A stretch of DNA of 64,000 bases from Candidatus Bathyarchaeota archaeon B24 (GTDB lineage: Archaea; Thermoproteota; CALKCG01; B24), in assembly GCA_001593865.1 (NCBI GenBank), contig LUCB01000012.1:2485-66484 (forward strand). Reading direction: 5' to 3'. The position numbers and the translations under genes are program-made. This document shows, one piece after another, positions 44,009-46,231 of the stretch. How positions within the stretch are numbered: the first letter of the stretch is position 1; each line of letters starts with the position of its first letter. The notes under the pieces were generated by a model that worked only from the letters and a program-made list of their open reading frames with translations, was not told the origin of the DNA and did not search any database.

Positions 44009-46231
44009 CTACTCTCTGTCCATGAAGTCTTCTGGCCTAGGCGGCTCTGGTGATAGTCCTTTACGCTGCCTTATCTCACGTATGAGCTTAGGCATTAGCG
44101 ACGATGGCACCGGCGCCCACCTGGAGAACGGTAGGCTCCAGAAAGCCTTGCCTGATGTGGAGGACCTTATCACATCGGCTAGGTCGAACGTCTCCGCGGC
44201 CGGTATCTCCCCTTCGACGTGAACCACATACTCTCTCTGCTCTATAGATAATACGCGTCCCCTTCTGCTCGTCAGTATCTTGGTTAGGACACCGACCATC
44301 TCGGCTGGGGCTCTGGCTACAAGCTTCATTATCGGCTCTAGGAGTATCGGATCCGCTGAGAGTAGACCCGCGTAGATGGCTCTACGAACCATAGGTATTA
44401 TCTGAGCCGGGCCTCTATGAGCCGGGTCTGAGTGTAGCTCAGCGTTCTCCAGATTAACCTTGACGCCTCGGACGTATTCCCTCGTAAGCGGCCCATCATC
44501 CATGGCTGATATGAAGCCTGAGACCATGTAATCTCGGACCTCGTTGAGATATTGGACGCCCTTAGAACGGTCTACGAAGATGCATCCATGAGGGTCTATC
44601 CCATAGACGTTCCTAGCCTCCTCCGCAGGCCACCCGTAGCTTCTGAGGAGTTTAGCTATGCTCCTCCTATCCATCGTATCGTTGAGTTTACCCGAGGTTA
44701 TAAGCTCCACTATCTGCGGGTCTAGGGGTTCAACGCTTATGTAAACCCTATTGTGTCTGTTCGGTGATTTAGCCATGAAAGGCCCTGCGGGTTTTCTGAT
44801 GCTCTCCCTGTATATAACGGTCGGCGGCGAGGTTATGATCTCTAACCCCGTCTTCTGTATGAGCGTCAACGCGATCTCGAGGTGAACCTGACCTATGCCC
44901 GAGAGGAGATACTCACCGCTTTCCTGGTCTATCCTAGCCACCAAGTTGGGGTCCTCTATAGTCAGCTTGTTCAGCACGTCGACAAGCTTAGGCAAGTCTC
45001 TACTATACTTCGGCTCTATGGCTATGGTCACGACAGGCTCCGTGACGTATCTAACGGCTTCGAAAGGCACCACATCTGGGATAGAGGCTATCGTTTCACC
45101 AGCCCTAGCCTTATCGAGCCCCAGTAAAGCCGGTATGTTACCCGCCGGTAGACTGCCGACGATCTCCCTATACGGACCCATATAGATGCATACCTGCTGA
45201 ACCCTACCGGTCGCCCTAGCTCCTATGAGGTGAACGGTGTCTCCGGCGTTTATGACCCCTGAGAACAACCTCCCCGTCGCTACTACACCGGCTTGAGGGT
45301 CGACGGTTACGTTCGAGATGCACATGACGACAGGCCCATCGTCGTCGCATTCGAGCATCGCCTTACCCACCTCTGAAGATAGGTCTCCATGCCAGATCTT
45401 AGGTATCCTGTACTTCTGGGCTATGGGTGGAGACGGCAGATGCTCTACGACCATGTCGAGTATAGCCTCGTGGAGCGGAACGGTTTTCCTAAGCTCCTCG
45501 ACGTTTCCCTCCTTATAAGCCGCCACGACATCCGAGAACTTTATACCCTTCTCCTGAGCCACCCTGAGGGTGAAGCCCCACCTATGTTTAGCCGAGCCGA
45601 GGGCTACGTTGTTGTTTGAAAAGCTTACCTTCCAAGCCTTCCTGTATTCAGGCTCGGCATACATCTCGATCAGACGGTTGAAGTCCTTGATTATCCTAAC
45701 TATGACTTCTTGGACGCCTTGGGGGCTTAGCTTAAGCTCGTTGATCAACCGGTCGATCTTGTTTATGTATAGAACCGGTCTCACCCTCTCTTCTAGGGCC
45801 TGTCTGGTGACGGTCTCCGTCTGGGTCATGACACCTTCAACCGCGTCCACCACAACTATGGCCCCGTCTATCGCTCTGAGAGACCGGGTAACCTTACCCG
45901 TGAAGTCTATGTGACCTGGAGTATCGATAAGGTTGATCACATACGGCTTGTTCTCATACTCGTAGTAGAGACTTATGTTAGCCGCCTTTATCGTCATCTG
46001 CCTCTTCTGCTCCTCCTCCATATAGTCTAACGCCAAGGCCTGCCCAGCCATCGAGGGCGATAACAGGCCGCAGGCAGCTAGAAGGGAATCGCTCATAGTA
46101 GTCTTACCGTGGTCTACATGGGCTATAATTCCTATATCTTCCGGACCCGAGGCCGAACCTCAGGTCTTTCGGATAAACTCCTTGTCCTTAACTATCTTAA
46201 GTATCTCAGCCGTCGTCCTATACCTAGGCAT
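44009..46231 (-). CDS. fusA: Translation elongation factor aEF-2, interrupted: the conserved N-terminus ([23 protein letters not shown]) is separated from the G1 motif ([13 protein letters not shown]) by an in-frame TGA inside a 27-nt insertion; the ORF track lists only 44009..46096
   Basis: G-domain motifs [9 protein letters not shown], DTPGH and NKIDR; diphthamide-region and domain IV/V motifs; strong similarity to crenarchaeal aEF-2. Hand translation upstream of 46096 shows the in-frame TGA at 46160-46162 on the plus strand. Confidence 0.8.

Follow-up and report, generated by a model that had tools for sequence, protein, structure and literature searches.

A predicted tRNA-type bulge-helix-bulge intron with a conserved in-frame stop codon in the elongation factor aEF-2 gene of Bathyarchaeia

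We analysed a stretch of 64,000 nucleotides of Candidatus Bathyarchaeota archaeon B24 (contig LUCB01000012.1 of assembly GCA_001593865.1; hereafter the window), in which the gene of the archaeal elongation factor aEF-2 (EF-2) is interrupted by a stop codon. The stop very probably lies within a 30-nt tRNA-type bulge-helix-bulge (BHB) intron, located inside an Asn codon and excised by the tRNA-splicing endonuclease EndA. The analysis establishes in silico that the motif exists, is conserved and covaries, that its removal restores the frame and the Asn codon, that both exons are under selection and that EndA is encoded.

Read from the ATG at 46231, the aEF-2 frame runs into a TGA at 46162-46160 (minus strand), and the interruption near the N-terminus that had been pointed out in a preliminary description of this DNA is real. 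A mechanical list of open reading frames (ORFs) splits the gene into a stub of 23 aa (46160-46231) and an ORF of 695 aa that begins at the ATG at 46096 and is devoid of the P-loop. The preliminary description was also right that the gene holds an insertion, but it took this to be 27 nt (46136-46162), and the true interruption measures 30 nt, 46167-46138 on the minus strand. Deleting the 27 nt yields IRKT-IGII, one residue more than in every uninterrupted orthologue, whereas removing the 30 nt yields IRN-IGII, matching the intron-less orthologues, and a product of 730 aa. The direct repeat AAGAC...AAGAT proposed as the boundary of the insert exists as well, but as a by-product of two A-rich bulges. 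The spliced 730-aa product scored 872.7 bits against TIGR00490, the NCBIfam aEF-2 equivalog (curated cut-off 738.45 bits), and covered model positions 5-720 of 720. The parts of the gene are as follows.

46168-46231, minus strand: aEF-2 exon 1, 64 nt, comprising 21 codons and the first base (A) of the Asn codon; its N-terminus agrees with uninterrupted orthologues.
46138-46167, minus strand: predicted BHB intron AGACCUGAGGUUCGGCCUCGGGUCCGGAAG, 30 nt; its removal restores the aEF-2 frame.
44009-46137, minus strand: aEF-2 exon 2, 2129 nt, from the AU of the Asn codon through the stop codon.
46160-46162, minus strand: in-frame stop UGA, the third codon after Arg in the unspliced mRNA.
46275-46282, minus strand: candidate archaeal TATA box TTTAATAA, about 47 nt upstream of the ATG, proposed from a reading of the sequence.

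No BHB motif could be folded here according to the preliminary description. One is present, and it is essentially the minimum free energy (MFE) fold, with UCCG of the exon pairing with CGGA of the intron. Folding of 46120-46190 (minus strand) gave UCCG[AAA]GACCUGAGGU-UCG-GCCUCGGGUC-CGGA, a helix-bulge-hairpin with the following elements.

46170-46173, minus strand: 5' strand of the central helix, UCCG, exonic (last base of the Ile codon and CG of the Arg codon).
46140-46143, minus strand: 3' strand of the central helix, CGGA, intronic, pairing with UCCG over 4 bp.
46167-46169, minus strand: 5' bulge AAA, with the predicted cut between 46168 and 46167; AAA in 37 of the 43 sequences compared below.
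46137-46139, minus strand: 3' bulge AGA, with the predicted cut between 46138 and 46137.
46144-46166, minus strand: intronic hairpin (helix h'), 10 bp of GACCUGAGGU with GCCUCGGGUC, loop UCG, in the MFE fold.
46131-46136, minus strand: exonic 3' flank UAUAGG, whose first two bases pair with A46174 and U46175 as outer helix h.
46131-46179, minus strand: whole BHB motif including both exon flanks, 47.2 bits and E = 4.7e-10 with our covariance model (CM R1).

The two 3-nt bulges lie on opposite strands with a helix of exactly 4 bp between them. The hBHBh' type is defined by at least two Watson-Crick pairs in each outer helix (PMC7714728, footnote), and the motif of the window conforms to this strict definition: helix h has 2 bp, A-U and U-A (46174-46175 with 46136-46135; outer pattern ||x|xx), and helix h' has 10 bp. 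In each bulge, archaeal splicing endonuclease separates the second base from the third (PMC2738675). Applied to the window, this rule places the cuts at the two positions listed above, so that exactly 30 nt are taken out and an Asn codon is made from A and AU. An alternative register, with the AAA bulge beside a central helix GACC:GGUC, gave a 19-nt intron and a shifted frame, and was dropped in favour of the tRNA-like register.

We searched for further copies of this motif. A CM R1 search of the 64-kb window with filters off matched the EF-2 site alone, and the same type of search over all 82 loci revealed no copies away from the EF-2 site. At gathering thresholds, Rfam reported two tRNAs and a 5S rRNA in the window and no described family over the intron. 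A generic, sequence-independent BHB scan of the window, combined with an ORF-joining filter, returned 181 candidates, nearly all within ordinary ORFs; the EF-2 intron stood near the top and no other candidate was convincing. The best BHB-like candidates besides EF-2 were 33426-33451 (minus strand) and 8591-8616 (plus strand), each of 26 nt and bordered by long helices. These two are probably simple hairpins within long ORFs of the ordinary kind.

The comparison with relatives was based on the DNA of 79 related genome loci, with structure counts made on 43 distinct insert sequences and with 29 intron-less loci as reference. An insert occurs at exactly the site of the window in 43 of the 79 loci, besides the window itself, and the covariance model detected it in a 44th locus that was absent from its training set (L018, 58.8 bits). 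The insertion is shared by 44 other Bathyarchaeia loci; a comparison with close relatives had been proposed in the preliminary description. Two loci, L018 and L075 (CP070773.1, a complete Bathyarchaeota chromosome), each contain a masked run of 100 N. L075, the only complete chromosome in the set, was left out, as its run lies directly upstream of the EF-2 match and hides the N-terminal region. The window belongs to a hot-spring member of the Bathyarchaeia, and the closest relatives of its EF-2 share 85-86% protein identity with it. The nearest metagenome-assembled genomes are bins of Tengchong type (JZ/DRTY/QZM), and lineages L019-L039 occur in peat and soil.

The inserts measure 25-44 nt. 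Their lengths represent every class modulo 3 (22, 11 and 10 sequences), and 33 of the 43 are not multiples of 3. Exon 1 is for this reason in a different frame from the remaining gene in many loci. Spliced products measure 728-731 aa in every complete locus. The structure-defined cut after the second bulge base creates an Asn codon in 42/43 sequences, and Asn is found at this place in 29/29 intron-less loci, which all read [IV]R-N-xG at the site; cuts after the first or the third bulge base fit worse. In the middle of the 3' bulge all four bases occur freely (U in 16, G in 12, A in 11, C in 4; those with A are nine AAA, one CAA and one UAA), as expected of an intronic base.

Covariation provided further insight into the structure. 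Pairing was counted on exon anchors, leaving no alignment freedom. All four pairs of the central helix are formed in 43/43 sequences, and its second pair alternates between CG (33), UA (9) and GC (1). Compensatory changes on both sides were detected in nine of the 12 modelled pairs, including all seven exon-anchored pairs of the intronic helix h'. The exonic closing pair covaries too (AU 37, GC 4), through changes in the flanking exon codons, and the base 5' of the central helix changes in concert with the third position of the Asn codon. Pairing extends to 92.1% of all cells, versus 47% with partners slid by one column. The covariation score was 0.396 versus 0.203 in shuffled data, with none of 500 shuffles reaching the observed value and slid controls at or below 0.15. 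RNAalifold, run with no structure imposed, recovered the same central helix, bulge and inner helix.

The structure also appears to leave a mark on the protein-coding sequence. The Arg codon preceding the insert is CGA in 41 intron-bearing genes (in the window at 46169-46171) and CGU in two. Meanwhile, the 29 intron-less genes use AGG (14), AGA (3), CGG (3), CGU (3), CGC (2) and CGA (4). As this codon forms part of the helix and contributes the first bulge base, we conclude from codon usage that the choice of the exonic Arg codon is dictated by RNA structure. Between relatives, the ratio of nonsynonymous to synonymous substitution rates (dN/dS) amounts to 0-0.28 in exon 1 and to 0.02-0.05 in exon 2. 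Judged by these ratios, both exons are under purifying selection.

In 42 of the 43 introns, precisely the third codon after Arg is a stop (UAG, UAA or UGA). The U and A of this intronic stop frequently have no pairing partner in the hairpin (13/43 and 16/43, respectively), which suggests that selection acts on the stop itself and not on its part in the structure.

Two genes encoded elsewhere in the window bear directly on these results.

9930-10490, minus strand: endA, catalytic alpha subunit of the tRNA-splicing endonuclease, 186 aa, PF02778 and PF01974.
22039-23040, plus strand: Dph2, diphthamide synthesis, modifying EF-2, PF01866.

The presence of endA had been noted from the outset and is borne out by a score of 107.6 bits on TIGR00324 (cut-off 59.6). 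The best matches of this protein in the PDB were 3p1z_B (E = 7e-46) and 3ajv_B (1.8e-44), followed by 2cv8_A and 2zyz_B, which we take to be alpha subunits of the crenarchaeal Aeropyrum, Sulfolobus and Pyrobaculum enzymes. The first two presumably belong to the (alpha-beta)2 structure of A. pernix. In that structure, the alpha chain has 186 residues, and the Crenarchaea-specific loop (CSL) and its lysine have been shown experimentally to give broad substrate specificity (PMC3241643). The alignment over the CSL is free of gaps (SKPKTADF versus EKPRGADF), with Lys44 conserved and Arg46 replaced by Lys. By its sequence, the window's EndA belongs with the alpha subunits of crenarchaeal type and has the loop of broad specificity. 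This loop matters because most relatives have one exonic closing pair only.

Exon 2 of aEF-2 is an intact frame of 709 codons. It contains HSDPAHRG (...HSDPAHRGPAQ...), which we take to be the canonical diphthamide loop of domain IV. A conserved diphthamide loop together with dph genes characterizes canonical aEF-2 (PMC6143161). Dph2 in the window fits a canonical, diphthamide-bearing EF-2. The window's copy is probably the canonical aEF-2 rather than its paralogue aEF-2p.

Based on these data, we propose the following model of expression. In the pre-mRNA, UCCG of the exon would pair with CGGA of the intron to form the 4-bp central helix between bulges AAA and AGA, and the BHB would be closed by the 10-bp hairpin on the intron side and by two A-U pairs on the exon side. 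We predict that EndA cleaves each bulge behind its second base, and an RtcB-type ligase would join the exons into CGA-AAU-AUA (Arg-Asn-Ile), giving the normal 730-aa EF-2. The predicted spliced junction is GAGTTTATCCGAA followed by ATATAGGAATT (also written GAGTTTATCCGAA followed by ATATAGGAATTATAGCC). On unspliced mRNA, translation would end after 23 codons (23-24 residues in relatives) at the conserved stop, and no aberrant EF-2 would be produced. That the transcript is cleaved and religated in vivo, that a ligase of this type joins it and that the stop has a function are what we infer from these observations. Most plausibly, the stop makes ribosomes on unspliced mRNA terminate early, so that aberrant EF-2 is avoided.

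Other explanations of the interrupted frame have to be weighed against splicing, several of which the preliminary description had placed ahead of it. The window comes from a single assembly, and metagenome-assembled genomes can carry local errors, so the 30 nt might be an assembly or sequencing artefact that is not in the real genome. Yet 44 further loci, assembled independently in different studies, with different assemblers and from different habitats, are interrupted at this site by inserts that differ and covary. Moreover, the 695-aa product of the window is recorded in three sources (jgi, lgn, ena), and the protein collection contained no uninterrupted copy of these strains. An artefact is almost certainly not the cause. 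The gene might instead be a pseudogene, hit by a recent inactivating insertion while another EF-2 copy functions. Some room for this is left by the fact that 64 kb of the genome is in view, and by the few Bathyarchaeota that carry EF-2 paralogues according to PMC6143161. The view of aEF-2 as a single-copy gene is in that respect not strictly true of Bathyarchaeota, even if the copy seen here looks canonical. However, exon 2 is intact and exon 1 is conserved as protein even when it is in another frame, the dN/dS values are low in both exons, and the insert sits in the same codon in the other loci and was kept across lineages whose EF-2 proteins are about 35% divergent. The product also scores above the aEF-2 equivalog cut-off, Dph2 is encoded in the same genome, and the interrupted copy is the best and only EF-2 match retrieved per genome. 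These observations make a decayed or recently inactivated gene highly improbable.

Recoding on the unspliced mRNA was a further suggestion, either as readthrough of the stop or as ribosomal bypass (hopping) over the hairpin. The resemblance to phage T4 gene 60 is obvious at first sight, as both essential genes have a coding gap with an in-frame stop beside a hairpin: the stop adjoins a stable hairpin that superficially recalls the gene 60 take-off site, and in the window AAG precedes the stop while a second AAG stands just before AUA. Readthrough, also in the form of Sec or Pyl recoding, is contradicted by the 33 inserts whose lengths are not multiples of 3, since the segment cannot stay in frame. 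Gene 60 requires identical take-off and landing codons and has no BHB geometry, whereas in 0/43 sequences does any codon between Arg and the stop equal the landing codon, and the AAG...AAG coincidence is confined to inserts with the 3' bulge AGA (12/43). Recoding explains neither the 4-bp helix with two 3-nt bulges, nor the covariation with exon bases, nor the restoration of Asn by structure-defined cuts, and we give it a very slim chance. A slightly less remote, though still very improbable, option is internal initiation, by which EF-2 would lack its first 22 residues and start just after the insert, with exon 1 as a separate small ORF or leader peptide. A Met codon does follow the insert in some lineages (NMGIIAH), the only ones in which such a start could be used, and gene callers give 706-aa products in several lineages. 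In most lineages, window included, it is instead Ile (AUA, AUU or AUC) that occupies this position, and exon 1 keeps the orthologous EF-2 N-terminus under purifying selection. Internal initiation likewise gives no reason why the BHB cuts should always join the exons in frame through an Asn codon. Post-transcriptional excision by EndA, the option least favoured in the preliminary description, is in turn strongly supported by the BHB and the comparative data.

Some observations nevertheless count against splicing. The z-score of the single-sequence fold is modest (-1.78), and all genomes in the comparison are metagenome-assembled. Neither rtcB nor cbf5 was among the 20 window ORFs scanned, and an EndA beta subunit was not encountered within the 64 kb, where no search was aimed at it. 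Spliced sequences were sought in three ways. Exact look-up of 10 spliced proteins in a collection of 15 billion proteins found none of them; the DNA pattern of the spliced junction matched only unrelated intron-less lineages in metagenome contigs; and a profile of the spliced N-terminus, run against 5.8 billion proteins, gave no uninterrupted product that reached 95% identity to a lineage with the intron. Finally, the outer helix h has two pairs in five of the 43 sequences, one pair in 36 and none in two. Strictly, these sequences portray an intron family that is relaxed on the exon side and hence would depend on a broad-specificity enzyme.

The remaining annotated genes of the window include the following.

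6770-8095, minus strand: TiaS (tRNA-Ile agmatidine synthetase).
16733-18091, plus strand: SRP54.
31507-31627, minus strand: 5S rRNA.
2556-2630: tRNA-Ala, 75 nt, intron-less (ARAGORN).
25765-25838: tRNA-Arg, 74 nt, intron-less (ARAGORN).

The translation-related genes Dph2, TiaS, SRP54 and 5S rRNA share the window with endA and EF-2.

The distribution of the intron provided insights into its history. In a neighbour-joining tree of EF-2, intron-bearing genes span nearly all sampled Bathyarchaeia, and the intron is absent from the Caldarchaeales/Wolframiiraptor outgroup and from a Hecatellales-like branch. One intron-less gene (L015, Arg codon AGG) is nested among intron-bearing lineages, with about 87% protein identity to that of L016. 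Its sequence looks like the outcome of a precise intron loss followed by relaxed codon constraint. The simplest reading of the tree is that the intron was acquired long ago, would be ancestral to most Bathyarchaeia, and has been retained with occasional loss, at least one of which was precise.

A second intron position was found in locus L010, which has no intron at the window's site (Arg codon AGG). Six codons downstream, between His and Val codons, this gene displays a 42-nt BHB intron (L010:252-293) of canonical hBHBh' form, with outer pairs AU and UA, a central helix GCCC:GGGC, bulges AUA and AGG, and an inner helix of 11 bp. It carries an in-frame UAA at the fifth intron codon. The same intron is found in three further assemblies (L083, L084 and L085), where it precedes the called gene start by about 100 nt and differs by changes that keep the pairs intact. 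We regard the L010 intron as independent of that of the window. The same region of EF-2 also hosts inteins. L018 has both a BHB intron at the window's site (L018:1095-1142) and a P-loop intein (L018:~1150-2990; HGK/CVSED...VVHN/TTMSD) with the LAGLIDADG-like motifs LVGLLYGDGS and LRGLYDTDGYV. In L046 (Calditenuis), just upstream of position 3001, an intein ending in ...GVVVHN/TTTTD is found at the same P-loop position.

Interruptions of this region are accompanied by frequent misannotation. The eleven protein clusters nearest to the window's EF-2 (73-100% identity) are all called at 695 aa, from the same Met, and more distant clusters at 728-730 aa. Among the 120 closest EF-2 clusters, at least about 30 lack part of the N-terminus or begin at a wrong start (lengths of 669-712 aa, or spurious N-termini). 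Most of them lack the P-loop, and some have been deposited as 'elongation factor EF-2'. The miscalled clusters are the following.

P0001-P0013, P0019, P0022, P0024, P0028, P0032, P0034, P0050, P0054, P0058, P0062, P0080, P0081.
P0084-P0086, P0100-P0102, P0106, P0113, P0117, P0120.

Cluster P0113 is a Bathyarchaeia-like archaeal EF-2 of 706 aa with the source name '[Eubacterium] cellulosolvens', which probably reflects contamination or mis-binning.

BHB introns in archaeal mRNAs have been reported for two genes, namely cbf5 in Crenarchaeota (PMC2738675) and HVO_1309, in its 5' untranslated region (UTR), in Haloferax (PMC7714728). A review from 2023 stated that more archaeal mRNA introns 'remain to be discovered' (PMC10485636), and a structural paper from 2025 cites cbf5 alone for pre-mRNA (PMC12397907). 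We found no report of an EF-2 intron in the searchable full-text literature, which omits most subscription journals, and a prior report is possible. In its accessible text, a study of EF-2 evolution that includes Bathyarchaeota uses the word 'intron' once and reports no EF-2 intron (PMC6143161).

The closest parallel is the cbf5 intron of Sulfolobales and Desulfurococcales, which like that of EF-2 is short, of BHB type, inside the coding sequence and predicted to be cut between bulge bases 2 and 3 (PMC2738675). The tRNA-splicing endonuclease processes it, its occurrence is linked to hetero-oligomeric (alpha-beta)2 EndA, and its patchy distribution, with gains and losses and confused gene prediction at the site, is resembled by the pattern seen here (PMC2738675). 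The two cases differ in that Cbf5 is an RNA pseudouridine synthase of Crenarchaeota and EF-2 a translation GTPase of Bathyarchaeia, and in that the cbf5 motif is described as a relaxed BHB whereas the EF-2 motif of the window is strict. Splicing of cbf5 has been shown by cDNA and in vitro cleavage, whereas the EF-2 case is known in silico alone. The cbf5 pre-mRNA intron was reportedly studied by Watanabe in 2002 and Yoshinari in 2006, before Yokobori in 2009 (PMC2738675). To our knowledge, neither a conserved in-frame stop nor a second intron position has been described for cbf5.

Meanwhile, HVO_1309 of Haloferax volcanii (Schwarz 2020, PMC7714728; PMC10485636) also has an mRNA BHB intron, which measures 46 nt, is cut by EndA in vitro and has been seen as circular RNA. 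Methods for circular RNA, such as circRNA-seq, reportedly miss many short circles (PMC7714728). In contrast to EF-2, this intron is in the 5' UTR of a non-essential peptidase, where it does not interrupt the reading frame, and the host is a euryarchaeon with an alpha-2 type endonuclease (PMC10485636). With the hBHBh' introns of tRNA and rRNA (Marck and Grosjean 2003, cited in PMC6379350), the EF-2 motif shares the 4-bp helix, the two 3-nt bulges, the flanking helices and similar sizes. It is oriented like the introns at tRNA position 37/38, the exonic strand of the central helix preceding the first bulge. Unlike in tRNA and rRNA, the host is an mRNA, in which the exon side also encodes protein (UCCG-A, the Ile and Arg codons) and helix h is minimal, at 1-2 bp.

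Beyond archaea, the HAC1/XBP1 system (IRE1 and RtcB; PMC13149111) is similar in that a structure-recognising endonuclease excises a very short mRNA intron independently of the spliceosome. XBP1 is ligated by an RtcB-family enzyme (PMC8718801), and splicing decides whether a functional protein is made, as we propose for EF-2. It differs in using IRE1 instead of EndA and twin stem-loops instead of a BHB, and this eukaryotic system is regulated by stress. The XBP1 intron is 26 nt long.

It is possible, although we consider it unlikely, that the intron acts as a conserved control point, coupling the rate of EF-2 synthesis to translation status or to tRNA-splicing capacity (EndA/RtcB). This idea draws on the position of the intron, 64 nt into the mRNA, and on the retention of its stop in 42/43 lineages even at the expense of base pairs. 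A ribosome on the unspliced leader would then unwind the BHB and terminate inside it, and EF-2 activity or ribosome traffic would compete with EndA for the BHB in an autoregulatory loop. If so, the clustering of two independent BHB introns and an intein near the P-loop, in a stretch of about 10 codons, would point to repeated selection for a checkpoint, or to a hotspot of intron gain.

The excision of this intron would have implications for gene annotation as well as for the biology of these archaea. Marker sets for phylogenomics and estimates of genome completeness are affected by truncated EF-2 calls, as are earlier puzzles of EF-2 evolution in Bathyarchaeota (PMC6143161), and BHB-aware gene finding is needed. 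With cbf5 so far the only case of a BHB intron inside an archaeal coding sequence, the EF-2 intron would, if real, be the first mRNA intron of its kind known from Bathyarchaeia, and the first known from any core translation factor. It may serve as a testable model of how mRNA splicing proceeds alongside coupled transcription and translation in archaea.

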